From an uncultured Gemmatimonadota bacterium (GTDB lineage Bacteria; Gemmatimonadota; CAZMKB01; CAZNLH01), in NCBI GenBank assembly GCA_964573995.1, contig CAZNLH010000001.1:112810-176809 (forward strand): DNA of 64,000 bases, in the 5' to 3' direction. How positions within the stretch are numbered: the first letter of the stretch is position 1; every line of letters begins with the position of its first letter. The translations under genes were made by a program, and so were the position numbers. Of this stretch, positions 3,626 through 64,000 are shown piece by piece. Under the pieces are notes generated by a model. That model was not told where the DNA came from. It was given only the letters and a program-made list of their open reading frames with translations, and did no database searches.

Positions 3626-3643
3626 TTCCCGGAAGGGCATAAC

Positions 3644-50327: not shown

Positions 50328-51039
50328 CGCTGCTGTTATTCCCTGTCATTTTTAAACCATCGGCAGATGATGCCTGGATCTCGGCCTTTAACAAGGCCGC
50401 CTCTCCAGCTTCCTGCGCATCCGGGTAGTTGTCGAGGATGAACCGGCATTCTTCCAACGCCTTCTGCGTGTCATCCGCCATGGAATACGCCCTCGCCGCA
50501 TCGAGCCTCGCCTTTACACGCTGGTAATCAAAACGGGCGCTTTCGGATGCTCTGATGTAAGCAGCAGCGGCCTCGACGAATGAATTCTGATCCTCCAGGA
50601 TACATCCAAGGAGTTCATGCGCCTGATAACTCATAGGGGAACGAGTATCATATTCAGCGTCAAATTCTTTCAAGGCGTCTTCGGCCTCTTTGTATTTCTT
50701 CTCTTGGTAATAGGCCTCCGCAAGCATGTACATGGCCTCATCCCCTATCTTTGTCCCTGTGAAGTCCTTTCTGACCTTTTCAAGGTCAGAGATTGCAAGC
50801 GGATAGTTCTGTGAATCATAATCCACCTGGCCGCTCCACAAGAGGCGAGCGGCGCGCATCTCCTTGTGTGAACGATAATCCAGGTAATACAGCACCGCTC
50901 CGACAACGACGGCGACCGCGATCAGGTAGATGACTGTTTTTCTCAGGTTCTCTTGGAAAAAACGGGCCAGTTCAAACGTCGTGCTTACAAACTTGTCCTG
51001 CTTCAGTTGCTTTTTAGAAAGTCTCCTTTTGCTGCCCAT
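50320..51039 (-). CDS. Membrane-anchored TPR-repeat protein (YfgM-like).
   Basis: Basic N-terminus, one TM helix, then TPR-like repeats ('MYMLAEAYYQEKKYKEAEDALKEF'). Confidence 0.5.
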   Translation of the reverse strand: MGSKRRLSKKQLKQDKFVSTTFELARFFQENLRKTVIYLIAVAVVVGAVLYYLDYRSHKEMRAARLLWSGQVDYDSQNYPLAISDLEKVRKDFTGTKIGDEAMYMLAEAYYQEKKYKEAEDALKEFDAEYDTRSPMSYQAHELLGCILEDQNSFVEAAAAYIRASESARFDYQRVKARLDAARAYSMADDTQKALEECRFILDNYPDAQEAGEAALLKAEIQASSADGLKMTGNNSSGG

Positions 51040-51101
51040 GGCTCTCAATGCCTCCGTTGAACTTGGGAATTATCTTTCCAAGCCTGATAAAAAGACAGCA
51101 C

Positions 51102-51178: not shown

Positions 51179-51848
51179 ACCTGCATAACTTACAAAGGGT
51201 TATCGGCGTTACCTGTACTTTGTTCTGATATGCGATGCTTCAATGCGATTGACAATTATTCGTTTGCTGCTCCTTCGCATCGTTCATTCTAATTATTACC
51301 GCCAACCTTGTCAAGATCGTGCTTCCTGTCCTCATCCCGCCCGGCACTCATCGATGGAGGTCTTGGATTACCGTGTAAGCCTTTTAGAGCATCCGCGAGG
51401 GTAGCGCCGATGGGCGTGTTCGGCGACAGGACCAGCGCGTTTCACAGGGTAACATCCGCGAAATAACTTCCGGGGAATCGCACTGGGTGAGCCGGTATCC
51501 TGGAGATACCCCACCTGCGCCTGGTTAGGATGAATCGGAAGGGCTCATCCCTCATGAAGTCAATGTCCATGGCCTACCCCTTGATGACATGAACGCGGAT
51601 AAGCGAGTCATCTCGGCTGTCACATCCTGAACAGAAGTATCCTTCTCAATGGGATCGATATAAAAAAAGTATTGTGCAACCACCAAAAAGGTAATGGACA
51701 ACGGGCGTTGATCTAACGGGGATTATAAGGCCCTTTCAAGTTCCTGCTAAGGGAAAGGAGAAGAAAGTGGGGCGCAAAGCCGCACTTGGTATGCATATTG
51801 CTTAATAAAAGGTGTGAATATACCACTGTCATGCTTGCTGGAGGTCTT

Positions 51849-52994
51849 TCCGTGGCCAATATAACCTGCAATGAAGTTGGCAAGAGGGCTCCTTCCCTCC
51901 TGATCGGCTGTCTGTTTCTCTCGCACCTCTTCCTCCTGCCGCAACCTGGATGGTCGGGGGAATATCATTCCTATCGAAATGGTACGCTGTATTGTGATGA
52001 ATGCCACCTGTCCTTAGTCTCCCCTAAAGACCTTCCGAGTACGGTACCTTCCGCCGCAGGTAAGCCTGCAGGATGGGCGGGCAACCCTTACCTCCTGAGA
52101 TATGATGGCAATGAAGTCTGCCTGTCATGCCATGACGATAACCCCGGGGCGGTGGACGTGGTTGGATTCAACAGGGGGGAGAAGCCGGGGATCGTGAGGG
52201 AGGCGGGTGCGCTCAACATGGTTTCCGGCGGTTATCCATACAGTGAAGAAAACGGCCACACTCTTGGCCTGGAAACTCCTGCTCCGGGAAGCGATCCCCA
52301 ATGGATACCTTCCGGCGGCCTGAAGTGCATCGATTGCCATGATCCACACGGGGAGAACCCAAACGGGAATTCCTATCGAAACCTGGTCGCTACCCCAGGC
52401 AACACCCCCTACCCCGGTATACTGGTGACGTATTCCTCGGGGACGAATGACCCAGGCAGCGATGTCTTTGTCCGCTGCATGGGAGGCTATGACGTGTCTG
52501 ATGTGGACTTCAATGAGCCATCCCCCGGCACTTCGGCAATGGCGGCGTTCTGTGGCGGATGCCACACCGATTTCCACGGCTCCAAGGGCGGACCGGAAGT
52601 AGGCGGAGCATCGGGAGTTGGCTGGATCCGACACCCCTCGAGTGATGCGGACATCGGCCACCTGGGCGGGCGCCATTCGCGCCGCGAGGTTTTTGCGGGG
52701 GAGTGGTCGAGAAAAGAAGACTTCGTCAAGGTCATGACAGGCACGGGGAACTGGAGGCCGCAAAGCGCCTCCGAGGTTGTCGATCACACGCCGACCTGCC
52801 TTACCTGCCACAAGGCACACGGCAACCGAAACCCGTTTGGGTTGATATTCATGGGCAACAATGGGCCTGTTAATGAAGAGGGTACGCCGGGCGGCAGTTA
52901 CACCGACCTGTGCCGCCAGTGCCATGTCCAGTCGCTTCGGAGAGATCACAATAGGCAAGCCGGGCGCTTCGCGGGCCGTCGGCCCGGATCTTGA
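51849..52994 (+). CDS. OmcS-family hexaheme c-type cytochrome (candidate nanowire subunit), paralog 1.
   Basis: Six CxxCH sites in OmcS-like order and context: 'YHSY..CDECH', 'CLSCHDD', 'CIDCHDPHGE', 'FCGGCHTDFHG...WIRHPSS', 'CLTCHKAHGN', 'DLCRQCHVQ'. Recalled G. sulfurreducens OmcS has 'FHSGGVAECEGCH', 'CLNCHQ', 'CSSCHDPHGK', 'WCANCHTDIHN...LRHPAG', 'CLSCHRAHASG', 'CNKCHAKD'. GTG 51849 follows GGAGG, and a signal peptide is present. Confidence 0.7.
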   Translation, partial: SVANITCNEVGKRAPSLLIGCLFLSHLFLLPQPGWSGEYHSYRNGTLYCDECHLSLVSPKDLPSTVPSAAGKPAGWAGNPYLLRYDGNEVCLSCHDDNPGAVDVVGFNRGEKPGIVREAGALNMVSGGYPYSEENGHTLGLETPAPGSDPQWIPSGGLKCIDCHDPHGENPNGNSYRNLVATPGNTPYPGILVTYSSGTNDPGSDVFVRCMGGYDVSDVDFNEPSPGTSAMAAFCGGCHTDFHGSKGGPEVGGASGVGWIRHPSSDADIGHLGGRHSRREVFAGEWSRKEDFVKVMTGTGNWRPQSASEVVDHTPTCLTCHKAHGNRNPFGLIFMGNNGPVNEEGTPGGSYTDLCRQCHVQSLRRDHNRQAGRFAGRRPGS

Positions 52995-53018: not shown

Positions 53019-54152
53019 CTACTGATCGACTCTCGCAAGATAGTGGCACTGGTCGCATCCCACGTAATTCACGGTACCCTCGACGGGGAATGTCATGGAA
53101 AACGCCTGATCCGAGCCGTGGGCCTTGTGACAGGAGAGGCAGAAGACCCCGTTGGTAGATGCGTCCACCACGAGCCCCCCACCGTATTCCGACGCGCCGT
53201 CCACAACAAACGGCACCCTCTCTGTTCCGATGAATCCGGACCCGCTGCCGAGTTCCCAGTGGGCGGGGTTTGTCGACCCCCTGTCTTCCCCCTGGTCGAT
53301 GTGGTTCGGTGAGTTTCGTTCGCTGTCATAGGTGGGATGCCTTGAGTGAATACCGTTTCCATCCGGGTCTATGTAAGATTCTCCTGAAAAGATGTGATGA
53401 CAGTCCAGACAGATATTGGATGCCTCGCGCAACTCCTCTGTGTTCAAGGTGCCGTAAGAGACGTGTTCGCTCTCGTACTTATCGAGCCCCGAGGCCGACG
53501 GGTCCACGAGAAGACCAATCGGGGGTGTTCCATCGGGATCTGACGCCCACTGCAGGTTCCTTGGATTACCATTGCCGTGTGGATTATGGCAGTCAATGCA
53601 TGTCACCTTCTGATCCGCAGGGTCACCCCAGTGGCATCGCATGCATAGTTCCCAGCCGCTCGGAAGGTCCCTTCCAAGGTCATGTCCATTGATGTTCTGC
53701 ACCTCAGGTTCCCCGAAGAATCCAGCCGACCGCTCGGTCAGACCGTTCACGTCGTTTCCTACTACATCGGGTACGCCCGACATGTTATCGTGGCATAACA
53801 GGCAGAGGTCGAGAGGATCTGGTGCAAGCAAAAGTTCCGGGTTTGGGGTGCCTTCCCATGGAAAGCCCGAAATGGCCCCTTCTCCTGAGTAGCCACCCTC
53901 ATGGTTGTGTTGCATGCTTGCATGCATTACGTGACAGTCCGTACAAACCAGGGTCTCACCGAAATGATACGGAGTGTATCCGCCCACCTGTGGCTCATCT
54001 TCGGTCCCCCGTCCCCCCGTCTGCTTATGGATCTGGTAACCTAACAACTCTTCCCGACCCATCTGGCCTGCATTCAACTGGGCCACAGACAATTGGAAGA
54101 TAAGGGCCGAAATTACAGAGAGACAGACAATTACATCCTTGCCCGCAGACAT
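53019..54152 (-). CDS. OmcS-family multiheme c-type cytochrome, paralog 2 (7 CxxCH).
   Basis: 'CTDCHVMHASMQ', 'CLLCHDN', 'CMRCHWGDP', 'CIDCHNPHGNGNP', 'CLDCHHIFSG...IHSRHPT', 'CLSCHKAHGSD', 'CDQCHY'. Signal peptide 'MSAGKDVIVCLSVISALIFQLSVAQ'. RBS 'aaaggagga'. Confidence 0.65.
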   Translation of the reverse strand: MSAGKDVIVCLSVISALIFQLSVAQLNAGQMGREELLGYQIHKQTGGRGTEDEPQVGGYTPYHFGETLVCTDCHVMHASMQHNHEGGYSGEGAISGFPWEGTPNPELLLAPDPLDLCLLCHDNMSGVPDVVGNDVNGLTERSAGFFGEPEVQNINGHDLGRDLPSGWELCMRCHWGDPADQKVTCIDCHNPHGNGNPRNLQWASDPDGTPPIGLLVDPSASGLDKYESEHVSYGTLNTEELREASNICLDCHHIFSGESYIDPDGNGIHSRHPTYDSERNSPNHIDQGEDRGSTNPAHWELGSGSGFIGTERVPFVVDGASEYGGGLVVDASTNGVFCLSCHKAHGSDQAFSMTFPVEGTVNYVGCDQCHYLARVDQ

Positions 54153-54296
54153 GTTTCCTCCTTTCATTACGTCAGCGCGAGGCGTCTTCTAAGTTGAATC
54201 GCTGCTATCTCCTCAACGAGGGGCGATGCGAGGGGTAAGGAGGGGGAGAATCGGGGAGTACTCGAAGTCGGCCTGGGGTCTGGACCTTACCGCGGT

Positions 54297-57200
54297 CTAC
54301 TTGAAGTCGGCGCCTACACGATGACACTGGATGCAGAGATCCCTCCGCTGGTCATGGGTAAGCATCTTCGAGTAGTCACTGGAATGGGGATCGTGACATG
54401 AAGCACATGTCATCCTTTCTCCGGTGCGGGGATCGATCGCCTCACCACCTACGGGGTGTATGTGTTTCATGTCCACCGCATCCTTGTGGCACCCGTAACA
54501 CAAATCGTTCACATTGACCGGAAGGAGGTACCGAGCCTTGGAATCATGCGGGTCATGGCACTTGGTGCATCCTTCCTCTAAGGGCGCGTGGAGGTTTTTC
54601 CCGCCAAGGATTCGTGCCCTGTCGTGGCAGGTAAAACAGGTCTCATCGCCCTCCCTCGAGAGGAGGTACTTGCCGAATCCCATGTGAGGATTGTGGCAAT
54701 TTGTACATCCGCCACCCCGCGACAAGGCCTTGTGGAGGTGAGGCTGGTCCAGTTTCTTGCGAAAATCTTTATGACAGCCGAGACACAGTTCCTGGCCCTT
54801 CAACCTTGTGCCAAAGTTCAACTTGGAGGTATGACAAGTCAGGCATCCCCCCCTAAAGGGCTCATGGACTACTGGGTATAGGAGTTTTTTCCCGCCCTTT
54901 GGGACGGAATGCGGGTCGTGGCAGCGGGTACAGTCTCCCTTCCCCACGGGGAATCCGGAATGTGCCGCCTCGAACGCAGGCTCCCCGGCATCATGACAAC
55001 TCAGGCAGAGGGTTGCCCCCTTCTTTTTCAAGAGGTATTCGTTGCTCGATGTGTGGGAATCGTGACAATCCCCGCAATCGCCATCCTTATATGGTGGGTG
55101 AAGGGCCTCCGTTTTGTAACCCTTCCCGAGTCTCTCATGACAACCGAAACACAGGGAAGGCGTGCCTTCCTTGAGTAGATTCTTCACCGCTCCGGAGTGC
55201 GGGACATGGCAACTGAGGCATTCGCCCTTTGCAACGGGGGCGTGGCTGAGCGAGGTTCTCGTTATACCCCTCATCCCCTCGTGGCACCGGTAGCACAATT
55301 TTTCCCCAGGAGCACGGAGTAATTTCTCGTTGCTCGATGCATGGGGGCTGTGGCAGGCCACACAATTCCCTTTGGTGACCGGGTCGTGAACCACCTCGGC
55401 ACCGGTAAAATCGTCGTCATGACACTGTAGGCAGAGTGCACTCCCCTCTTCGACCAGGCGCGCGGGCTCCCCCTTGCGCTTGGGTTCCACATGGCATGCG
55501 TCACACAACTTATCCTCAAAGGGAGGATGAAGATTCTTTCCCAACAACTTTGGCGATGCCGAGTTGTGAGGATCGTGGCAGTCTATGCAATTCGTCCCTT
55601 CAACCGAGTATCCGAGGTGCGCATTCCTGATGTTTTCGCTGTCCACCTGGTGGCAACTCTGGCACAACTTCTTCGGTTCCGCTACGAGGTTTACGGAGAA
55701 ATCCGAGGCATGAGGGTCGTGGCAGGTCAGGCACCCCTTTTCTGTAGTCAGAGGCTGGTGAACATTCCCGGTAAGATAGTCATCCCTGTCATGGCACTTA
55801 AGGCACAAGTCCGTTCCCTTCGCCTTGAGCAGACCAGGCCCCTCGCCACCGTGTGGATCGTGGCACCCGCTGCAATTTCCCTCTACCACAGGTGTGTGGA
55901 CAGAGGGCTTCGTCATGAGTTCTTCGATCTCAGAGTGGCAGGATATGCAGAGTTCACCCTGATCCTTGACCAGGAGCCCCTTGTTGCCCGCCGCATGGGG
56001 ATTGTGGCAATCGGTACAGGCTCCTTCGACGGCGGCGGGATGAGCACCATCGCCTGAAATCTTCTCCCCTATATCTTTATGGCACTGCGTACAGAGATCA
56101 TTTCCCCCTATCTTCAACATGGAATTACCGGTCGAGGCGTGGGGTGAATGGCAGGCCGAGCACTCACCCAATTCGAATGGGCTGTGCTGATTTACCTCCT
56201 TGAGCCTGTCCACCACGTCACCATGACACTTCAGGCATATTTCCTTTTGAGGCCCAACCAGCAGGGACGGCAACTTGGAACTGTGCGGCCTGTGACAGGA
56301 CAGGCATCCCGGGTCAAGGACCGGCGGATGAGTCCCCTCCCCCTTATCGATCGCCTCGTAGATATCCTTGTGACAGGAACGACACAGATCCGGCTTCGGG
56401 GACCTCAGCAGCGGACTCGTCCCGGAACCGTGAGGGTCGTGGCAACCTGTGCAATTACCCTCCTTTAGAGGGGGGTGAACCGATTTGTCATGAAGATCCT
56501 CTTCCCTTTCGGGGTGACAAGTAAGGCACAACTCGCCCTCGTCCTCCTTCAATAGCGCCTTTCTCTTGGACACATGAGGATCGTGACAGTCGGTGCACTC
56601 TCCATCGGATGCAGGCGGGTGGATCGATTCAGACCTGAGGGACGCCTCGATCTTGGAGTGACAGGTAAGGCAGATATCCTTCACGTCCTGCCTTAGATGG
56701 ACACCCCCCTCCCCGACCGGCTCCTCGTGGCAAGCGGTGCAGTCTCCCTCGAGCAGGGGTTCATGTGCGCTCTCGTTCAGTAATGCGGGCCTTGAAGATG
56801 CGTGGGGGTTGTGACAACTGTCGCATGACAGTTCCTTTATATCGAATCCCTTGTGTCCCTTGGATTGTGCAATATCCTCTTTACCATGGCACTTTCTGCA
56901 GAGCGTCTTCTCATCAGAGACCAGGAGGCCCCCGTACGATGAAGCATGGCTCTGATGGCAAGCCCCGCAGTCCTTATCGGCGAAGGGCTGATGCAGATGG
57001 GGTTTCTCGAGTTCCCTGGCGATGTCCTCGTGGCATGAAGTGCAGATGCCCTTTCCGCCGATCGATTTCAGGAGGGATGCATTGTCTGAGGCGTGAGGAT
57101 CGTGGCAGGCGATACAATTGCCTTCCTCGACAGGTGAGTGGACGACCTTCTTGCCGGCCTCTTTTTTGATATCCTCGTGACAGTTCAGACAGAGATCGGG

Positions 57201-57422
57201 CCCCGTCCTCTTCAAGGCGAGTTTCTGCTTAAAGCCGTGTCGGGCATGGCAGGCGTCACACTTTCCCCTTTTGACGGGGTCATGAATGATCTCCTTAGAC
57301 TGGAAGGCCTTCCGTGCCTGTTTGTGGCAATCATAGCAAGTCTTACGTTGAGCAATGAGGGGCAGGACCAGTAGGTTCTCCACGGTAAAGAACAGGAAGA
57401 GCGCCCGCCTCGTGCTGCCCAT
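54297..57422 (-). CDS. Giant periplasmic multiheme cytochrome c (~42 CxxCH), a polymer of cytochrome-c7/c3-like triheme repeats.
   Basis: Signal peptide present. Regularly spaced CxxCH motifs (~42 counted by eye) in repeating 'C..CH.PH.S......L....G..LC..CH' units across the whole length. The ATG overlaps the upstream gene's stop (TAATG). Confidence 0.85.
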   Translation of the reverse strand: MGSTRRALFLFFTVENLLVLPLIAQRKTCYDCHKQARKAFQSKEIIHDPVKRGKCDACHARHGFKQKLALKRTGPDLCLNCHEDIKKEAGKKVVHSPVEEGNCIACHDPHASDNASLLKSIGGKGICTSCHEDIARELEKPHLHQPFADKDCGACHQSHASSYGGLLVSDEKTLCRKCHGKEDIAQSKGHKGFDIKELSCDSCHNPHASSRPALLNESAHEPLLEGDCTACHEEPVGEGGVHLRQDVKDICLTCHSKIEASLRSESIHPPASDGECTDCHDPHVSKRKALLKEDEGELCLTCHPEREEDLHDKSVHPPLKEGNCTGCHDPHGSGTSPLLRSPKPDLCRSCHKDIYEAIDKGEGTHPPVLDPGCLSCHRPHSSKLPSLLVGPQKEICLKCHGDVVDRLKEVNQHSPFELGECSACHSPHASTGNSMLKIGGNDLCTQCHKDIGEKISGDGAHPAAVEGACTDCHNPHAAGNKGLLVKDQGELCISCHSEIEELMTKPSVHTPVVEGNCSGCHDPHGGEGPGLLKAKGTDLCLKCHDRDDYLTGNVHQPLTTEKGCLTCHDPHASDFSVNLVAEPKKLCQSCHQVDSENIRNAHLGYSVEGTNCIDCHDPHNSASPKLLGKNLHPPFEDKLCDACHVEPKRKGEPARLVEEGSALCLQCHDDDFTGAEVVHDPVTKGNCVACHSPHASSNEKLLRAPGEKLCYRCHEGMRGITRTSLSHAPVAKGECLSCHVPHSGAVKNLLKEGTPSLCFGCHERLGKGYKTEALHPPYKDGDCGDCHDSHTSSNEYLLKKKGATLCLSCHDAGEPAFEAAHSGFPVGKGDCTRCHDPHSVPKGGKKLLYPVVHEPFRGGCLTCHTSKLNFGTRLKGQELCLGCHKDFRKKLDQPHLHKALSRGGGCTNCHNPHMGFGKYLLSREGDETCFTCHDRARILGGKNLHAPLEEGCTKCHDPHDSKARYLLPVNVNDLCYGCHKDAVDMKHIHPVGGEAIDPRTGERMTCASCHDPHSSDYSKMLTHDQRRDLCIQCHRVGADFK

Positions 57423-57916
57423 TATTTCGACCCTCCCTTGTTCCTGATCACCGTCTCCTTTCCACCCCCCCGGTTTCCATCAGGTTTCTCTTCTCCAGCC
57501 CCCTGAGCCGTTCCGGTAGGCGAGACCTTGTAATCCTTTAGTTCGAAGGAGAGGAGTGATCTCCTGAAAAAATGGGGGGCACCCTTTCCACGGAAGGCCC
57601 ACGTTTCATCCACCTTCTTGTCCTTGTCGTATACAATCACCCGAACAGCGGGGTTGTTTAACTGGTCGGATCGAGAAATGACCTCTCCCGTCTTCAGGTT
57701 TACGGCAAAGTCTGGGATGAATTCCACCGCCTCGGCGGAATAATCCGTGTCAGAGAGGTAGAATCTCTCTCCCAGTCTCACGGTGTGTTCCTCGCGAAAG
57801 TCCTTGTATACCCTGTGGGTAGCGACCAGTGTAACGTTGTCGATCTTTATTGTCCCGGCTATTGCCCGGGATATGACAACTGTAGAAATCAAGATGAGAA
57901 AGACCGTGTACTTCAT
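57422..57916 (-). CDS. Hypothetical periplasmic protein (signal peptide) inside the cytochrome operon.
   Basis: 'MKYTVFLILISTVVISRAIAG'. ATGA overlap with the upstream gene and TAATG overlap with the downstream cytochrome. Confidence 0.45.
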   Translation of the reverse strand: MKYTVFLILISTVVISRAIAGTIKIDNVTLVATHRVYKDFREEHTVRLGERFYLSDTDYSAEAVEFIPDFAVNLKTGEVISRSDQLNNPAVRVIVYDKDKKVDETWAFRGKGAPHFFRRSLLSFELKDYKVSPTGTAQGAGEEKPDGNRGGGKETVIRNKGGSK

Positions 57917-58551
57917 CGCATCTCCTCCATTCTATGAAGGGATTCCCTCCTCAGGGATTTAACGACCTCGCGAGCCATGACCTCGGTCAGCCTGTCGAGG
58001 GATGTTATCCTCCCGATCCCGAAGACCTTTTCTGTGTCGTTGCCGTTCCTGGAGTAGGATGAGGCCCAGAGGATCTTTCCGCTGCCGGCGTCGACCATCT
58101 TGACGAGCAATGATATGAAGGGGACTTCGGTGACGTTGTAGCCCTGCACCTGCCTGATCCCGTATTCAAGGACAGTCCCCTCGATGAGTGCGGACACATT
58201 CAGATCGGATGCGATCTTCCGGGTCTGCTCACTCGAGAGTTCCGAGATGAAACGAATCCTTTCAGAGGTGAGGACACCCTCTACTTCCCCGGGATCGACC
58301 ACCGAAAACTTACCTGTTTTCAACAACTCTACCGTAAAGATATCGTGAACGTGCCTGGCGGCGCCCTCCGCATCCGTCAGGTTATCGAACGGAAGTACGG
58401 CGACACGAATCTCACCATGGAGTTTGAATTCATTGCTCGTGTATACCCTTGGACTGGGCGCGCACCCGGCGACTAAAGCGGTTGCGAGGAAAACAGACAA
58501 CTTCCTAAATTTCCTGTCCTTGAGATTCATGGCGCATAATACGTGGATCAC
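57913..58551 (-). CDS. Lipoprotein with a CsgG/LpoB/DUF799-like N-terminal fold, paralog A.
   Basis: Lipobox 'LVAGC'. Motif 'EIRVAVLPFDNLTDAEGAARHVHDIFTVELLKTGKFSVVDP'. Confidence 0.45.
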   Translation of the reverse strand: MIHVLCAMNLKDRKFRKLSVFLATALVAGCAPSPRVYTSNEFKLHGEIRVAVLPFDNLTDAEGAARHVHDIFTVELLKTGKFSVVDPGEVEGVLTSERIRFISELSSEQTRKIASDLNVSALIEGTVLEYGIRQVQGYNVTEVPFISLLVKMVDAGSGKILWASSYSRNGNDTEKVFGIGRITSLDRLTEVMAREVVKSLRRESLHRMEEMR

Positions 58552-58578
58552 ACCCGGAACGAGGGTGATACCCTCTCC

Positions 58579-59226
58579 TCAATATCCTATCCGGTCGACT
58601 ATGTCTTTACACACCTTCTGGGTCATCTCTCCAAGGGTATACGTCTCCCCGAGGCTGATAATTGGGAGGTGGGGTCCTCCCTTCCTCGTGTGGCTGATCA
58701 TCCACACGACCTTTCCTGTCTCGACATCGATCAATTCAACGTCGACGGTAACGAGCGGGTACGATGTCTGTCCTATCCTCACCATCTCGTAATCTCGAAC
58801 CGTTCCCGTTATGATTCCCTGGACTTCGGCTTCGCTCCCCAGTTTCTTGATATTGTCGAGTTTCCACTCTCCTCCTGAATCTATTCCGCCGCTCAATATC
58901 CCCCTCGCCTTTTCGCGGAACTGCCCCGGCTCCACGACATCGAAACTCTTCTTGACCAGGAGTTCTGTAATCAGCGCATTGGCGACCTTCTCACCGGCCA
59001 GTCGGTCGTTGGTTAGGTTCTTAAAGGGCAAGACACCGATGGTCTCATAGTACGAGATATCGACGTCCTGGTGTATAAAGGTCCTCGGCCCACCGCAACC
59101 CATCAAACAGGCCGGGAGCAGGCAGGTCAACGATATCGTTATACGGCGCCTTAAGGTGGATACGATAATCTCTCTGGCGGCCGGCGGACCTTTCTCGCCT
59201 CTTCTCTGGTGTTCATCGGAATTCAT
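58579..59226 (-). CDS. Lipoprotein with a CsgG/LpoB/DUF799-like N-terminal fold, paralog B.
   Basis: Lipobox-like 'CLMGC'. Motif 'GVLPFKNLTNDRLAGEKVANALITELLVKKSFDVVEP', paralogous to the gene downstream. Confidence 0.45.
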   Translation of the reverse strand: MNSDEHQRRGEKGPPAAREIIVSTLRRRITISLTCLLPACLMGCGGPRTFIHQDVDISYYETIGVLPFKNLTNDRLAGEKVANALITELLVKKSFDVVEPGQFREKARGILSGGIDSGGEWKLDNIKKLGSEAEVQGIITGTVRDYEMVRIGQTSYPLVTVDVELIDVETGKVVWMISHTRKGGPHLPIISLGETYTLGEMTQKVCKDIVDRIGY

Positions 59227-59230
59227 AGCG

Positions 59231-60874
59231 CTAAAACCACTTCACAAGATTGATCCCCAGGTTGCTTATCCTTCTGTTTCCGGAGATCATCTGGGTATCA
59301 AGGCTCAAACGAAGGTTCGCGCGTTCCCTGAGCTTCAGGTTCATCTGGAAGAGGAGCCCCTCCTGGGCCCCGGAAAAGGACGTCGGCTGTGTTAAGGCCT
59401 CCCCATTGGCCCTGGACCGGGAATTTCTCCGGTTGTATATCAGGGAGAGACCCGAGCCGCCCGAAAAGAGGTAGTTCAGTGTCCCCGTAACGAGGTAATC
59501 ATGACGCCCGAAGACCCTGCGGTCGTCTTCCCTCGCTACGGTCCAGAGGGTCGTCAGGCGTGGAGCCGGCTGATAATTGAGGCTCATCTGCAAAGTCGAT
59601 GATTGGGTGTCTAACCAGGGGACCTTTTCTCCGTATGATAGTGTCCGGAGGCCGAAATCGAGCATCAGCCTTCCGGTTGGGACGGTGCGAAGATCGAGCG
59701 TCCGCCGTACCTGGAATCGTCCTGTTGTAACGCCGGGGTTTTCCGATTGTGTGATATTGTAATCGGAATTCAGGCTTATGCCGCGATAGACCTGCGCAAC
59801 CACGCTGAACAGATACCCATGTGAAGGAAAACTGCCCTCCTTGCTCCTGATGATGTATGTCCTTGTGAACGCCGCCCTCCCTTCGATCCTTTCACGAATT
59901 CTACCGTGAAGGCGTGCCTCGGCACGGAGGAAATCGGACGTCGATTCCCCTCCTTCCTGCATTATCCGGCGATAATCCCTGGAACCAGATATCGAGAGAT
60001 AATCGGTCGGCATGAACCTCATACCAGAGACTACCTCGGACAGGGAGGAGTTCTCGCTGCCCTGCCCCTCTCTCCTTATGTAATTGCCGAGGAACGAGGT
60101 GTAGCCTGACAGGCGGGCCAGCGGCTTGATCGAAGCCCGGGCACTCATGTTATTGACCATAGACTTGCCGATGAATTCCGGCCCTCCCCGATCGTCCGTG
60201 TATAGATAATCATAGTCCACCGTGAGGCTTGCCCGCCGGGGAAAGGGGATACGGGCACCAAGCCCCCCGCTTATATCCCGTATCCTGCGATTACCACTAT
60301 TGTCGACCCTGTCGACCATCTTCCTCTCCCTTAGAAGTGATCGATAATTCATGAACTTGTATTCGTATGTCATGTTGACCAGCCTGTCCACCTTGAGCAT
60401 ATCGACCCTGCCAGCGCCTGTCCCTCCACCCACCCTCTCGTTCCGGTCATATGTAACGCTGGTCACCGGTGCCTTGGGAGGCGACACGACAAGGTTAAAC
60501 CGCCTGCCCCTTCCGTGCAGTGCCGCCGGGCCGGAAGCGCTGTTGAGCCTATAGCGCGGGGAGAGATCGCCGGTGAATGTGTAATACTTCCCTGTCATGT
60601 TGGTGCGCCACCGCTGGCGGATGGCCCCTCCGGGCTGCGTACCTGCCGAATACCGCTGGAGAAAATAACTCAGGGTCAAGAGGTTTTTTGTGAAAAGGGC
60701 ATCCGCCACGGAAATATCCAGTTCCTGGTCAAAGTTTTGACTCCTCGTGTCCTCGAATCTGGTGCTCAGGTAGTCGAGGTTGAGCCGACCCCTGAAGTTC
60801 GCCTGAGAGAACAGCCCGGCGGGCTCCATGGAGAACGCCAGTAAGGCCGCAGAGGCAGACAACAGCCTCCACAT
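59231..60874 (-). CDS. Outer-membrane beta-barrel protein, a candidate porin or secretin partner of the cytochromes.
   Basis: Signal peptide 'MWRLLSASAALLAFS'. Alternating amphipathic beta-strand pattern throughout. C-terminal '...LGINLVKWF' has the OMP terminal aromatic. The track ORF extends to 60985. Confidence 0.55.
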   Translation of the reverse strand: MWRLLSASAALLAFSMEPAGLFSQANFRGRLNLDYLSTRFEDTRSQNFDQELDISVADALFTKNLLTLSYFLQRYSAGTQPGGAIRQRWRTNMTGKYYTFTGDLSPRYRLNSASGPAALHGRGRRFNLVVSPPKAPVTSVTYDRNERVGGGTGAGRVDMLKVDRLVNMTYEYKFMNYRSLLRERKMVDRVDNSGNRRIRDISGGLGARIPFPRRASLTVDYDYLYTDDRGGPEFIGKSMVNNMSARASIKPLARLSGYTSFLGNYIRREGQGSENSSLSEVVSGMRFMPTDYLSISGSRDYRRIMQEGGESTSDFLRAEARLHGRIRERIEGRAAFTRTYIIRSKEGSFPSHGYLFSVVAQVYRGISLNSDYNITQSENPGVTTGRFQVRRTLDLRTVPTGRLMLDFGLRTLSYGEKVPWLDTQSSTLQMSLNYQPAPRLTTLWTVAREDDRRVFGRHDYLVTGTLNYLFSGGSGLSLIYNRRNSRSRANGEALTQPTSFSGAQEGLLFQMNLKLRERANLRLSLDTQMISGNRRISNLGINLVKWF

Positions 60875-60881
60875 TGAGATT

Positions 60882-63032
60882 CTACCATCTCTCCTGCTCA
60901 CTTTCCCTCGTCTTGACGGCCTCTCTCTCTCCCTCAGACGGGTGATGCACGTTAAGGCTGTTTGAGGACGAATAATCACGTCCATGGCAGTCGTAACATG
61001 AAGCCTCTCTCCCTGAGTAATGTTCCTGTACCTCGCTCGGGATGGTATTCATGATGATTCCTTCTACTGAACGCGAGCCCGGTACTCCGTCTGCAGGGAT
61101 GTGACAACCGAAGCAGAAACGGCGTGTCTGCTGCGGATCGTTCAGGGTATCAGTCAACCCGCTCCAACCGTCTCGCTGATCACTGATCAGGAAGCCGTTT
61201 GGCTGAACGCCGTCATGTCCCAATGACCCGTGCGGGTTGTGACAATCGTAACATGGAAGTTTGTCACCCTTCTGGACGTAATTCGGCCAGGACAGTGCTA
61301 TGTCGTCGGACATCTTGATCTGGTGCCCTGCCCGATCGTCATTATTGATCCTCGAGTCATAATAATCTGATATCCTCCGGTTTTCTTCATCCATGCCGAC
61401 CGGCCCGTCGGGGCCATGGCACCGGAAACATAGTTCGTAATGCTCCGGAGGACCCACTTCTCCCGACCCGCTTATCTCCAAGTAAGGATACAGTAGCAGG
61501 TCGAAGGGGTTATCCGTAACGTGCGGGTCGTGACAATTGATGCAGAGCCCATTTCCGGCCTGGTCGCGAAGCGGCATGTCGCGGTCGTTCCTGTGGGGGG
61601 AAAAGTACCTCCCATCACCGAAAGTCCTCTGGTCGGTATATGCAACCATTCCGGGCCACCTCTTGCGGTTCTTGACACCTGTAATTCTTTCTCCACCGCT
61701 ATTGTACTCGAAGTATCCGGGGGAGGAGGACCCTTCCGGCAGCCGGTCTGTCTCCTGAGCCGGGTATCCCGTGGGGATGTCTCCGTGGCAACCGCCCCTG
61801 CCGGATGGATCGAAACAGAGATTGTTGGTGTTCTCACAGAACAGCCCGTAAGGAAATGGACCGCCGGTGGGATTTCCGTCTACGCTGGCGTGCATATAAT
61901 GGCACTGGGAACACTCTCCCACGGTGGGTGGGTCGGTGACCACCCTTTCCACTCCGCTCAGTGCGTCGCCATGTTGACTATCGAGGAATATCCTGCCGTA
62001 GTGGCATTGCGTGCACGTCTCTGACATCCTCTGCCCGTCTTCGTGGGGTAAAGTCTCGCTATCGTCATAGATCAGGAGGTACTTGTGCGAGGATCCATGT
62101 GCCTTGTGGCATGAACCGCAAAACGCTTCATTGTCGCTGTCGGCCGACGAGCCCGGGACCTCGGTTGGCGAAACAACCGCAACACGCGATACAAGCCCTG
62201 AAAACCAGCCATCGCCTCCAAGGTGACCGTTGCGATAGCCATCCGACATCGTCACGTCTCGTGTTGGGTGACGTAACCACTCGTTCCCAGGTCCAGTATC
62301 ACCGCTGGGGCTTCCGCCCATTTCGTGACCTCCCCCAGGGCCGTGAAACTCTCCATGACATCCCCCGCACCACCTGGATAAGCCGACCTCGTTTCCTCCG
62401 GACATCAACCGCCTGTAACGGATGTTCTCTACCGAGTAGCGGATAGATGGTGGGGTCGTCTCTATCTCCTGCACCGAGGAAGATCCGTCGTAGACCTGGC
62501 CCCGTGTTACCGTGACGAGGGCCTGGCCCTGCCCGCCAGGGTTCTCCACTAAATTACGGTAATACTGATTTCCATGAGGATCATGGCAGGATGTACACGT
62601 CAGTGTGGACGACCATGCTCCACCGGTATATCCGGGTGGACTCTCGCCCGACCCGAGGGAGTGTCGGTTTTCCTCGACTATCTGGCCGCCGCTCGTAAAA
62701 CTTCCAGCGGCCGATTCGTATCCGACAGGGTCCTCTACGTTGGGGGCGTTAGGGTTGCTGCCGTCATGACAATTGAGGCACAACTGATTCGTCGTCTGAT
62801 CGATGATCAATCTCTCAAAGGGCCCGCCGGGTTCCGATCCGGGTGGGATTTCCCCGTTTTGCGAGTAGTGCATTGTATGACAATCCGAGCAGAGGAGGCC
62901 ATCGTGTCCCAACTCGCTATCGGCCGACAGGCCTTTGCATCCCAAGGCTACATACCAAAGGAGCATAGTGAAGGACCAGGCGAATACCCAGTTGTATGTG
63001 AAATAAGGGTGAAAGGATGATCCGTGAATCAT
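60882..63032 (-). CDS. Doubled OmcS-family cytochrome: two tandem hexaheme OmcS-like modules (12 CxxCH), possibly a lipoprotein.
   Basis: Module 1: 'CSDCHTMHYS', 'QLCLNCHDGSNP', 'CTSCHDPHGNQ', 'WCGGCHGEFHG...WLRHPTRD', 'CGSCHKAHGSS', 'CTQCHYG'. Module 2: 'CSQCHYMHAS', 'CINCHDPHVTDNP', 'CFRCHGPDG', 'CYDCHNPHGS', 'CFGCHIP', 'CYDCHGRDYS'. The N-terminal hydrophobic segment ends in '...VALGC'. Confidence 0.7.
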   Translation of the reverse strand: MIHGSSFHPYFTYNWVFAWSFTMLLWYVALGCKGLSADSELGHDGLLCSDCHTMHYSQNGEIPPGSEPGGPFERLIIDQTTNQLCLNCHDGSNPNAPNVEDPVGYESAAGSFTSGGQIVEENRHSLGSGESPPGYTGGAWSSTLTCTSCHDPHGNQYYRNLVENPGGQGQALVTVTRGQVYDGSSSVQEIETTPPSIRYSVENIRYRRLMSGGNEVGLSRWCGGCHGEFHGPGGGHEMGGSPSGDTGPGNEWLRHPTRDVTMSDGYRNGHLGGDGWFSGLVSRVAVVSPTEVPGSSADSDNEAFCGSCHKAHGSSHKYLLIYDDSETLPHEDGQRMSETCTQCHYGRIFLDSQHGDALSGVERVVTDPPTVGECSQCHYMHASVDGNPTGGPFPYGLFCENTNNLCFDPSGRGGCHGDIPTGYPAQETDRLPEGSSSPGYFEYNSGGERITGVKNRKRWPGMVAYTDQRTFGDGRYFSPHRNDRDMPLRDQAGNGLCINCHDPHVTDNPFDLLLYPYLEISGSGEVGPPEHYELCFRCHGPDGPVGMDEENRRISDYYDSRINNDDRAGHQIKMSDDIALSWPNYVQKGDKLPCYDCHNPHGSLGHDGVQPNGFLISDQRDGWSGLTDTLNDPQQTRRFCFGCHIPADGVPGSRSVEGIIMNTIPSEVQEHYSGREASCYDCHGRDYSSSNSLNVHHPSEGEREAVKTRESEQERW

Positions 63033-63036
63033 TTAA

Positions 63037-64000
63037 TCATTGCTTATTGTTAGGTCTATCCGTTACCGGCACCTTGAAGGCCTGAAACCGCGCAATTCCC
63101 TTTTCCAGGATAAACAACCTCCCTCTTGATCCGAACGCGATATCGAGTGGGAAAAAGAGTTTCCCTGGCTCGGTCCCCATTTCACCATACTCTTTCACGA
63201 AGGTTCCATCCTCCGAGTATACCTTTACAGCATGCTGGAAAGTGTCCACGATCCACAACTTGCCCCTTGGTCCAACCGCTCCTGCTATGGGGAACGAGAA
63301 TTTACCCGCGCTTGAACCGTGAAGACCAAAGTGATTGACGAGGCGCCCATCCCGGCCTATTACATGAACGGCATATCCCCTCGAAGAGATCAGGATCGTT
63401 TCTCCTCCACGCGCTCCCTGCACTACATCTTGGAGTGCCACCCCCTCATTCTCCTCCTTGGGGAAGGTGTAAAACAGGCCGGTATTTCTACTGTCCATAT
63501 CCAGCCGCATAACGTCCCTCCCGAAACGACCCGCGACGAGGAGCCTGCCCCCCGAGTCAAAGCCCATACCGCCGGGGGAAAATCGTCCCCTTGACGATGA
63601 CTTCAGGTCTATGGGCTCCATGCCCACTTGGTCCCTGCCCACAGACCATATCCTGGGCATGTCCTGCTCCCCGATGACGAGTGTGCCGTTCCCGGCGACG
63701 GCCAATTTAAAGGGAATCCTCAGCGTCCTGTCCAGGCGCAACTTGTGCAGGTACCGGCCTTCCTGATCGTAGACGATTACCTGGCGCCTACCCCTGTCAG
63801 AGATGTAGACCTCGTTGCGAATGGTGTCGACTGCAATAGCGCCGGGCTTCAAGAGCGGCTCATCATGTTCCGCTTCTTCTACCGAGAATAAGAAATCCCA
63901 CCCCGACCCGCCCCCGGTTCCTCCTCCAGCCGTAACGCCACTACCCGCCAGGATGAACAACAGTAGAATCAGCACGAGCCTTACGGCCTCTCTTTTCCTC
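63037..64000 (-). CDS. NHL-repeat beta-propeller protein. The 5' end probably lies beyond the window.
   Basis: Repeated NHL-like blades: 'AIAVDTIRNEVYISDRGRRQVIVYD', 'GMGFDSGGRLLVAGRFGRDVMRLD', 'LDIAFGSRGRLFILEKGIARFQAF'. The ORF is open to the window edge upstream of GTG 63975. Confidence 0.6.
   Translation of the reverse strand, partial: RKREAVRLVLILLLFILAGSGVTAGGGTGGGSGWDFLFSVEEAEHDEPLLKPGAIAVDTIRNEVYISDRGRRQVIVYDQEGRYLHKLRLDRTLRIPFKLAVAGNGTLVIGEQDMPRIWSVGRDQVGMEPIDLKSSSRGRFSPGGMGFDSGGRLLVAGRFGRDVMRLDMDSRNTGLFYTFPKEENEGVALQDVVQGARGGETILISSRGYAVHVIGRDGRLVNHFGLHGSSAGKFSFPIAGAVGPRGKLWIVDTFQHAVKVYSEDGTFVKEYGEMGTEPGKLFFPLDIAFGSRGRLFILEKGIARFQAFKVPVTDRPNNKQ

Follow-up and report, generated by a model that had tools for sequence, protein, structure and literature searches.

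Is the 716-aa multiheme cytochrome encoded at 60882..63032 (minus strand) of the 64,000-nucleotide stretch of DNA analysed here (the window) a doubled OmcS, as an earlier note on this sequence proposed, or a composite of two different proteins? Reading of this interval revealed an intact open reading frame of 716 aa plus stop, which carries a CX8CH site in addition to 12 CXXCH motifs. Six of the canonical motifs lie in the first half (C48, C85, C146, C222, C305, and C340) and six in the second (C374, C497, C535, C594, C640, and C679), confirming the description of the protein as two consecutive multiheme units, and we set the boundary between the halves at aa ~345-353 because stand-alone homologs end or begin there. 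The landmarks that had been assigned to both units are present in approximate form only, as CSDCHTMH and CTSCHDPHG in the first half and CSQCHYMH, CINCHDPHV, and CYDCHNPHG in the second. Fused, full-length orthologs (45-70% identity) were found in at least eight other MAGs or contigs. This architecture is hidden by public gene calls, which start at M238 (479 aa) or M23 (694 aa) and leave the full ORF uncalled. Pfam and NCBIfam searches with the 716-aa protein returned generic multiheme models only, such as Paired_CXXCH_1 and Cytochrome_C7, and phmmer comparison of the whole protein with PDB sequences returned nothing at E <= 10.

The first half, or N-module (aa ~38-344; 62001..62921, minus strand), is clearly an OmcS-family hexaheme by its sequence, in agreement with the OmcS-like character proposed for the first unit. 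Profile-profile alignment (hhalign) to the OmcS family extended over the full length of the module (aa 39-350 to OmcS 1-406) with a score of 306.8 and E = 1.6e-42, compared to a background of 178 +/- 27 for scrambled orders, and a block matrix of the N-module against OmcS gave diagonal values of 56, 39, 86, 77, 59, and 22. OmcS was reached from the 716-aa protein only via an intermediate homolog and profiles; the intermediate (P0018) matches PDB entry 6EF8 at E = 5.7e-51, and the N-module profile matches it collinearly at E = 6e-14. Stand-alone homologs of the N-module are 330-350 aa long and 45-51% identical to it.

All six candidate distal His of OmcS are kept in the N-module, with hhalign placing H43 on H2, H55 on H16, H124 on H110, H153 on H147, the LRHP His on its OmcS counterpart, and H312 on H335. 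The module opens with an OmcS-type N-terminal "arm" (aa 43-55; 62868..62906, minus strand; H43...C48-SD-C51-H52-T-M-H55), and H55 at its end would be the equivalent of the inter-subunit ligand of OmcS, which we take to be H16. Wherever the alignment is valid, all 9/9 fused and all 46/46 N-only proteins retain H55, H124, H153, H255, and H312; the alignment misplaces the C-terminal 42 residues of N-only sequences onto aa 594-644. H43 is present in the relatives with its position shifted by 1-2 residues. The full-length AF2 model was of low confidence for the N-module (pLDDT 32-80, pTM 0.56) and throughout the linker and the start of the second half, too low for conclusions on how the halves meet, and a Foldseek search with this low-confidence model placed 6EF8 at the top with a non-significant match (E = 2.3, TM 0.10-0.16).

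The second half, or C-module (aa ~354-700), is by sequence a member of a large unnamed family of stand-alone ~370-aa cytochromes. A search with the C-module recovered 176 clusters at E <= 0.001, and the 120 of these that were listed are mostly stand-alone proteins of ~370-400 aa with 50-58% identity; matches to the stand-alone ~370-aa cytochromes reach E ~1e-110 to 1e-130. Members of this kind from Latescibacterota, Krumholzibacteria, and Gemmatimonadaceae, named "cytochrome c3 family protein" (e.g., P0052, P0073, and P0108), maintain this identity over the whole C-module and have six CXXCH, an invariant Cys-His, and seven conserved His in common with it, but unlike the C-module each has a signal peptide of its own and a gene to itself, located immediately after an OmcS-like gene. 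The C-module also occurs within giant multiheme cytochromes. Its similarity to OmcS does not clearly exceed the motif-scrambled background, being at or only marginally above it: the C-module HMM matched 6EF8 at E ~1, hhalign to OmcS scored 95.7 compared to 77 +/- 10 for scrambled sequences (3/60 scrambles as high or higher), and the block matrix showed no diagonal with OmcS. Two fold searches with the C-module likewise recovered no solved relative and no OmcS fold match.

The C-module consists of a conserved "head" (aa 354-416; 61785..61973, minus strand), with the pattern H354-GD..GV.R...G-E-C374-SQ-C-H378-Y-M-H381...LF.EN.N.L-C406-X8-C415-H416, and a body (aa 417-700; 60933..61784, minus strand) that carries the remaining five CXXCH motifs. 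H381 is a His in 41/45 C-only members. The head ends in a putative 13th heme site (aa 406-416; 61785..61817, minus strand), C406-FDPSGRGG-C415-H416, where the local model is of low confidence. C415-H416 is invariant in 78/78 family members, preceded by an upstream Cys in 58 of them (as CX8, CX7, CX6, or CX2) and by Ala or Pro in its place in the other 20, and distant relatives have a canonical CXXCH, CX4CH, or CX5CH at this position. The C-module also has seven conserved non-motif His, a count that fits seven hemes, and it therefore probably carries seven bis-His hemes, six at CXXCH and one at a variable CXnCH. The 12 hemes (6 + 6) ascribed to the protein in the earlier note hold for the canonical motifs, but 13 (6 + 7) are more likely because C415-H416 is invariant and distant relatives have a canonical CXXCH there. 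The analysis thereby flags a probable non-canonical heme site, CX2-8CH and sometimes with a single Cys. Across the whole protein there is one more conserved non-motif His than hemes (14 to 13), a surplus consistent with outward donation of H55; this tally is suggestive only, as Met or less-conserved His could serve as ligands instead.

Comparison with related loci showed that the 716-aa ORF is two different cytochromes, elsewhere encoded by neighbouring genes, joined in one polypeptide. Among 82 loci surveyed, 9 are fused, 18 are split with a full C-module, and 17 are split and share the head alone, followed by a different cytochrome body. In those ~35 split loci the N gene comes first and the C gene adjoins it, with the head starting within ~150 nt of the stop of the OmcS-like gene in the loci that were checked; the head opens cytochromes of many sizes and is always fused to, or directly after, an OmcS-like gene. 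The genes surrounding one split pair (L002) and those in the window are pairwise orthologous, the order being NHL, 354-aa cytochrome, 373-aa cytochrome, and proteins of 552, 219, 204, 191, and 1058 aa in the former, and NHL, the 716-aa fusion, and proteins of 584, 215, 212, 164, and 1041 aa in the latter. The pair thus shows the Rosetta-stone relationship, with N-only and C-only proteins encoded side by side elsewhere, in an unchanged order and gene context. In the tree of the C-module, fused forms appear at no fewer than four positions, a spread that may reflect either fusion or fission. A literature search for fused OmcS-like proteins returned nothing relevant.

The joint between the two proteins is short and nearly constant. 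Nine residues (aa 345-353, YGRIFLDSQ; 61974..62000, minus strand) connect His344 of heme 6 to His354 of the head, a junction whose length stays within 9-11 residues across 9/9 fused orthologs. Past the last CXXCH, N-only proteins extend by a median of 2 residues, and in C-only precursors the head His follows closely on the signal peptide, at a median position of 32, so the connector joins the extreme C-terminus of one protein to the extreme mature N-terminus of the other. Larger cytochromes, of 955-2,555 aa, likewise start with the N-C unit, and in these the boundaries of the two domains lie 1-32 residues from each other. The idea that a covalent link might pre-form a subunit contact is reasonable given this fixed junction, but for a hetero-pair and not for a homo-dimer.

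The surrounding genes place the 716-aa gene in an osc-type (OmcS-companion) nanowire-assembly cluster (Shen et al. 2025, as cited in PMC13194489 and PMC12977616): an OmcS-like hexaheme lies beside NHL, LpoB/CsgG-like lipoprotein, and 42-heme cytochrome genes on the same strand. The gene for a 312-aa NHL-repeat/beta-propeller protein (63037..63975, minus strand; Pfam NHL and DUF5128; NHL ortholog in L002) lies 4 nt upstream of the cytochrome ATG. On the other side follow, all on the minus strand, a 543-aa protein (59231..60862; a 584-aa ORF trimmed to the public call), two LpoB/CsgG-like lipoproteins of 215 and 212 aa (57913..59226; Pfam LpoB and CsgG; orthologs in L002 and in a further related locus, L001), a conserved small protein of 164 aa (57422..57916; ortholog L2_191), and a 1041-aa cytochrome with 42 CXXCH (54297..57422) that corresponds to two adjacent Desulfuromonadaceae genes with 26 and 16 motifs. 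The 543-aa protein, which has a weak ortholog in L2_552, matched nothing in Pfam, neither a beta-barrel nor a porin family, and is a candidate outer-membrane component by position only. Three stand-alone OmcS-like paralogs are present at the locus, namely one of 382 aa with 7 CXXCH (53019..54167, minus strand), one of 402 aa (51786..52994, plus strand), and one of 342 aa whose gene lies upstream of the window. In the Desulfuromonadaceae locus, which has the 26- and 16-motif cytochromes in common with this one, there are also an NHL gene and OmcS-like genes, and a head-bearing 7-CXXCH gene comes after its OmcS-like gene. In L083, three NHL genes and a further OmcS-like gene are located upstream. 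No rotamase match indicative of the peptidyl-prolyl isomerase OscH was found among ten ORFs scanned in the 48-64 kb interval; L001 does carry a peptidyl-prolyl isomerase.

That the N- and C-modules are adjacent genes in most other bacteria and are naturally fused here suggests end-to-end docking of two proteins. The family assignments, the gene order, the fusion, and the tight junction are observed, and the docking is inferred. As an explanation of the whole, we consider it rather probable that the protein combines an OmcS-family hexaheme with a different, ~seven-heme partner, fused within an osc-type cluster, and that the two halves dock end to end. The head of the C-module would dock on the heme-5/6 end of the N-module in the manner of the next protomer in an OmcS filament, with heme 1 of the C-module (C374) stacking on heme 6 of the N-module (C340); H381 may serve as the distal ligand of N-module heme 5 (C305). 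Docked in this way, the two modules would form one continuous 13-heme wire, and the OmcS-type arm at the N-terminus would be left free to plug into another OmcS-like subunit. In an OmcS-type filament, the N-C unit would then serve either as an end piece (a cap, anchor, or adaptor) or as an extension module, and not as a symmetric protomer dimer.

In the OmcS filament, a His from the neighbouring monomer ligates heme 5, and at the terminal monomer one heme is left open, where an anchor could attach (PMC7096707; PMC9473688); where such nanowires start and end, how they are anchored to the cell, and how electrons enter them are stated open questions (PMC12307469; PMC7096707; bioRxiv 10.1101/2025.10.22.684050). 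As a tentative extension of the docking model, possible but short of probable, the C-module family might be a dedicated end subunit of OmcS-type filaments, its head mimicking the donor arm and filling the open heme-5 socket of the last subunit, and the heme chain continuing into a non-polymerising seven-heme body that links either to the envelope, as an anchor or point of electron entry, or to the substrate, as a tip. If this is true, the fusions and the giant N-C-extension proteins would be Rosetta stones for the head-socket contact, and the family would explain the termination or anchoring of such nanowires.

An alternative that we judge unlikely is that the protein belongs to a porin-cytochrome conduit, in which its 13 hemes, held inside or against a neighbouring outer-membrane protein in the style of OmcB or MtrA/MtrC, would simply conduct electrons across the envelope, without any OmcS-like polymer. 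Conduit cytochromes typically carry twelve to thirteen hemes, as does this one. The gene order is also compatible with a conduit, given that the 543-aa protein is encoded next, followed by the LpoB/CsgG-like lipoproteins and the 42-heme cytochrome, and wire formation is known, among the Geobacter homologs of OmcS, for Geobacter OmcS alone (PMC12977616). However, the absence of a detected beta-barrel or porin family in the neighbour argues against a conduit, as do the full OmcS signature of the N-module, with the inter-subunit arm His invariant in 55/55 relatives, and the three further OmcS-like paralogs at the locus. Moreover, the equivalent Geobacter block is linked to the folding and secretion of OmcS nanowires and not to a classical porin-cytochrome complex (PMC13194489).

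A tandem duplication, in which both halves descend from one OmcS-like hexaheme and form a covalent protomer dimer, or, in a weaker version, in which the neighbouring genes arose as ancient paralogs and became fused afterwards, appears improbable. Both halves open with His ... CxxCH-x-M-H and share the sub-motifs CH.MH at heme 1, CHDPH at heme 3, and CH..HGS at heme 5, and deep profile-profile alignment of the halves (hhalign, E = 6e-14) pairs their six heme sites collinearly, with the CX8CH site falling opposite heme 2. The native block order also outscored 160/160 scrambled orders, but only with a score of 105.4 compared to a scramble maximum of 104.0. E-values with the heme-block order scrambled were still 1e-8 to 1e-13, and a block-by-block matrix of the N-half against the C-half had no dominant diagonal, the first C block scoring about equally with the first and third N blocks (33.5 and 33.9, respectively). 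These controls show that heme motifs inflate the hhalign E-values, and both a clear duplication and the opposite claim of no similarity at all, suggested by shallow profiles (E = 0.03-0.1 for half against half), were therefore rejected. The likeness of the head to the OmcS arm rests on short motifs. The internal repeat that the earlier note expected from self-alignment was not confirmed, since single-sequence self-BLAST of the 716-aa protein gave only weak matches in mutually inconsistent registers, and the tandem OmcS module it proposed is contradicted by the far closer match of the second half to the stand-alone ~370-aa cytochromes than to OmcS or to the N-half.

It is still less likely that the protein is a surface-anchored lipoprotein, tethered to the outer membrane by a lipidated Cys32 as in OmcB. 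The N-terminal export region (aa 1-37; 62922..63032, minus strand) has a hydrophobic helix at aa ~11-30, also present in the AF2 model (aa 11-30), and the Cys previously noted after a hydrophobic stretch is indeed there; the start codon is ambiguous, with M1 and M23 as alternative calls. V-A-L-G-C32 matches a permissive PROSITE-like lipobox and follows a 17-residue hydrophobic stretch, but A-L-G-C32 fails the strict pattern [LVI][ASTVI][GAS]C and the n-region (MIHGSSF...) has no Lys or Arg. Cys is missing at this position in 8/8 full-length orthologs, the loose pattern occurs in 2/9 fused orthologs, and the strict lipobox occurs in 1/9 fused, 1/52 N-only, and 1/112 C-only proteins, a census that ruled out lipidation as a conserved feature. 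In addition, OmcS-family cleavage falls just before the His aligned to H43, and would therefore remove Cys32.

Finally, an assembly or sequencing error that erased a stop codon and the intergenic DNA separating two genes, as might be suspected because public callers miss the full ORF and the majority of relatives are split, is effectively refuted by an independent metagenome record with the same intact ORF (100% identity over 9.1 kb), by at least eight other fused orthologs with an in-frame, conserved 9-11-residue junction and a second half without a signal peptide, and by the same junction in the giant N-C-extension proteins.

Returning to the docked pair of an OmcS-family hexaheme and a different partner, the significance of the locus is that, outside Geobacter, OmcS-family hexahemes are very often paired with a specific uncharacterised cytochrome, either as a neighbouring gene or as a covalent fusion, and that this pair is a concrete candidate for a filament end piece or adaptor. 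Should the docking model be wrong, an ordinary fusion of multiheme modules would remain.

The closest known counterpart of the N-module is OmcS of Geobacter sulfurreducens (GSU2504; PDB 6EF8/6NEF), a hexaheme that polymerises into conductive filaments and whose order of six CXXCH motifs the N-module keeps together with the landmarks CH-T-M-H, CLNCH, CxSCHDPHG, WCxxCH, LRHP, and CxSCHxAHxS, including all of the landmark His. The N-module differs in being ~60 residues shorter and only ~25-30% identical to OmcS-clade proteins, and in that OmcS ends 3 residues past heme 6, whereas the N-module there continues into a 370-aa second cytochrome. By position only, the 716-aa gene can be likened to GSU2501 (OscC), since both encode an OmcS-like cytochrome immediately upstream of a block for NHL, lipoprotein, large, and heme-rich cytochrome proteins; GSU2501 is always directly upstream of the eight-gene osc secretion/maturation block in Geobacter (PMC12977616; PMC13194489). 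The G. sulfurreducens cytochrome table in PMC13194489 has no cytochrome gene between GSU2501 and this block, so the gene for the partner, the C-module, seems to be absent in G. sulfurreducens. Finally, modular multiheme cytochromes of the GSU1996 type and other long, "nanowire-like" ones (PMC11492766) likewise build a longer heme wire from modules in one polypeptide, but here the joined modules are of different families, one of them the OmcS filament type, and the N-C pair also exists as two genes.

An intact open reading frame (ORF) at 60882..63032 (minus strand) codes for 716 aa with 12 CXXCH motifs, at residues 48, 85, 146, 222, 305, 340, 374, 497, 535, 594, 640, and 679. A JGI metagenome contig (3300023444, Ga0256747_1000038) is 100% identical to the window over 9.1 kb and carries the same ORF intact, but the gene call there starts at M238 (479 aa); in a further database entry the protein begins at M23 (694 aa). 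The M238 call leaves 715 nt uncalled (residues 1-237; window 62319-63032; 5286-6000 of L083, the fetched contig locus). Both public calls are too short, so that the 479-aa database copy lacks four hemes and the fused architecture is hidden. Full-length orthologs of ~700 aa (45-70% identity) were found, the nearest being from uncultured Gemmatimonadota MAGs (70%, 66%, and 51% identity) and one Glassbacteria MAG, and an artefactual origin of the long ORF can be dismissed with near certainty.

The only Pfam/NCBIfam matches for the protein were generic multiheme models, and direct phmmer comparison of the 716-aa protein with all PDB sequences returned no match at E <= 10. Besides the full-length orthologs, homologs cover one half only: P0016 (425 aa) ends at the motif equivalent to C340, while in P0013, P0014, and P0015 the counterpart of the query C-half forms the N-half, fused to something else. 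Searched separately, each half proved to be a large stand-alone family. N-only proteins are 330-350 aa long with 45-51% identity to the N-half, and the C-half search returned 176 clusters at E <= 0.001, of which the 120 listed are mostly stand-alone, ~370-400 aa, and 50-58% identical. The C-family, labeled in its source only as 'cytochrome c3 family protein' (Latescibacterota, Krumholzibacteria, Gemmatimonadaceae), also occurs within giant multiheme proteins. We are highly confident of the fusion and of the assignment of both modules to their families.

For the N-module (residues ~38-344), several comparisons point to OmcS, the filament-forming hexaheme cytochrome of Geobacter sulfurreducens (PDB 6EF8). 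An intermediate homolog, P0018, matches 6EF8 at 5.7e-51, and the N-module HMM matches it at 6e-14 in four collinear segments. Deep profile-profile alignment with the OmcS family extends over the whole length (score 306.8, E = 1.6e-42), and the block matrix has a clean diagonal (56, 39, 86, 77, 59, and 22, against ~15-30 off the diagonal). In the residue mapping, OmcS landmarks are matched exactly (H43/H2, C48..H52/C9..H13, H55/H16, H124/H110), as are CHDPH with H153/H147, WCxxCH, LRHP, and CHxAH with H312/H335, and the landmark histidines of the N-module are invariant across the family. His16 is presumably the inter-monomer ligand of OmcS heme 5. Structure prediction for the N-module was of low confidence; fold apart, it is by sequence an OmcS-family hexaheme. 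Cleavage by analogy with OmcS would fall just before H43 and remove Cys32, the residue through which the earlier note envisaged a surface lipoprotein. Although V-A-L-G-C32 fits a permissive lipobox pattern, it fits no stricter one, the n-region before it contains no Lys or Arg, and Cys32 is not conserved among orthologs, making such an anchor very improbable.

The same note read the protein as two OmcS-like units in tandem, which holds for the N-half, but the C-half (residues ~354-700) belongs to a distinct family. With shallow HMMs, the C-module matched OmcS at E ~1 and the N-module at 0.03-0.1. Deep hhalign of the two modules was collinear (score 105.4, E = 5.7e-14), pairing all six heme sites, with a CX8CH motif opposite heme 2. 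However, when the seven heme-centered blocks of the C-family alignment were scrambled (n=160), scores against the N-module were still 70 +/- 13 (maximum 104.0), implying that the N-C E-values mostly reflect generic motif matching and that the collinearity signal is marginal, with 0/160 scrambles attaining the native score. Against the OmcS family, the C-family scored 95.7, compared to 77 +/- 10 for scrambles, 3/60 of which were equal or higher, and its likeness to OmcS is not demonstrable from these alignments. No diagonal dominates the N-C block matrix, and the 'CH..H' blocks C1, C3, and C5 match N1, N3, and N5 interchangeably. An ancient duplication giving both halves one common origin, with a match near the scrambled background and no diagonal to support it, is therefore improbable.

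The count of 12 hemes split 6+6 likewise stands as to the CXXCH motifs but omits a probable 13th site of putative attachment, the C-X8-CH motif at residues 406-416 (61785-61817, minus strand), a candidate non-canonical heme site. C415-H416 is invariant across all 78 members of the family alignment. Of these, 58 carry the upstream Cys (spacer of 8, 7, 6, or 2 residues) and 20 have Ala or Pro in its place, a loss that would imply single-thioether attachment; more distant cytochromes sharing the C-module head (residues 354-416) have canonical CXXCH, CX4CH, or CX5CH at this position. In the C-module, exactly seven non-motif histidines reach a conservation of 90% or more (H354, H480, H504, H570, H601, H671, and H696), which would fit seven bis-His hemes, and H381 is kept in 41/45 proteins of the C-only group and in all nine fused ones.

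Gene order suggests how the modules are joined. At locus L002, an NHL-repeat gene precedes cytochromes of 354 and 373 aa, followed by proteins of 552, 219, 204, 191, and 1058 aa; in the window, an NHL gene is followed by the 716-aa fusion and then by 584, 215, 212, 164, and 1041 aa, and each gene pair is related by BLAST, the 584-aa ORF only weakly. The 354-aa protein matches query residues 20-344 and the 373-aa protein residues 354-702 (58% identity). In a census of 82 fetched loci, whose proportions are biased because query motifs were used for fetching, N and C shared one ORF at 9, an N gene directly preceded a full C-module gene at 18, and at 17 it lay immediately before a cytochrome sharing only the head (first ~65 positions) on a different body, including Anaeromyxobacter, Desulfuromonadaceae, Thermoanaerobaculia, and Nitrospirota. 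The fused nine include Gemmatimonadota, Glassbacteria, Planctomycetota, Pseudomonadota, and Poribacteria, and two carry extensions of ~1,750-1,860 aa. In the C-module neighbor-joining tree, fused forms fall at four or more distinct places, implying repeated fusion or fission events. Five giant representatives (P0162, P0164, P0167, P0171, and P0175; 955-2,555 aa, 18-40 CXXCH) start with N then C, with a domain-boundary gap of 1-7 residues in 4/5 and 32 in 1/5. In giants, among them those at L008 9893-15145 and L009 1047-6632, the N-C unit is N-terminal; extensions always follow the C-module and never separate N from C.

N-only proteins, like OmcS, stop a median of 2 residues past the last CXXCH, and the conserved head His of C-only precursors lies at median position 32, just past a signal peptide; in 9/9 fused orthologs, 9-11 residues separate the heme-6 His from the head His. 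This short fixed connector thus stands in for a stop codon, intergenic region, and signal peptide, and suggests that the two termini lie close in the assembled N-C pair.

These results show a secreted-type c-type cytochrome that covalently joins an OmcS-family hexaheme to a distinct, probably seven-heme cytochrome, a pairing kept across phyla. In OmcS, the adjacent monomer supplies the distal His of heme 5 (PMC7096707; PMC9473688). The C-module head might dock on the heme-5/6 end of the N-module in the way that one protomer adjoins the following one in an OmcS filament, so that the heme chain would run on into the C-module, with H381 (or H354) possibly providing the heme-5 ligand; we put this docking forward tentatively, at slightly less than even likelihood. 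Set against 13 hemes, the 14 conserved non-motif histidines would leave one His spare, which fits the N-terminal arm residue H55 remaining available to insert into another OmcS-like subunit, and the N-C unit may serve an OmcS-type filament as an end piece or an extension. That the protein belongs to a porin-cytochrome conduit with no relation to filaments is unlikely, and our explanation as a whole is, in our judgment, somewhat favored.

The 584-aa ORF (59231-60985, minus strand; public call from 60862, 543 aa) shares 104 nt with the 3' end of the cytochrome gene; a Pfam scan of the 543/584-aa protein gave no match, and from its position it may be an outer-membrane component of the cluster. 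Two LpoB/CsgG-like lipoproteins and the 164-aa protein share the strand of the fusion. The 1041-aa, 42-CXXCH cytochrome (54297-57422, minus strand) resembles adjacent genes at the Desulfuromonadaceae locus L079, residues 4-649 matching a 26-motif gene (1902-3824) and 664-1034 a 16-motif gene (3821-5011); as 26 + 16 = 42, this gene, too, appears to be a fusion. Geobacter GSU2495 is described as a 26-heme protein (PMC12977616). Stand-alone OmcS-like paralogs of 382 aa (53019-54167, minus strand), 402 aa (51786-52994, plus strand), and 342 aa (L083 2144-3172, upstream of the window end) score 71, 76, and 89 bits with the OmcS-family HMM, compared to 126 for the fused N-module. Beyond the NHL gene at 63037-63975 (minus strand), the source contig carries two more NHL genes and the OmcS-like gene, which precedes the third NHL gene; the three upstream of the fusion (L083 1045-5285 and window 63037-63975) thus comprise an adjoining nearest pair and one set apart by the OmcS-like gene. 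Downstream of the cytochrome cluster, 48162-51048 (minus strand) encodes a 721-aa GH57 glycoside hydrolase and a 242-aa TPR/YfiO-like protein. No rotamase gene was found among ten ORFs scanned between 48 and 64 kb.

This context matches the osc (omcS companion) operon as described in the literature. Clusters of this type are already known, as is the fusion of modules in multiheme cytochromes; the architecture is real and conserved, a hetero-fusion within that cluster type as opposed to a tandem OmcS duplication, and a conserved partner family tightly fused to an OmcS-type subunit offers a handle on how such wires end or anchor.
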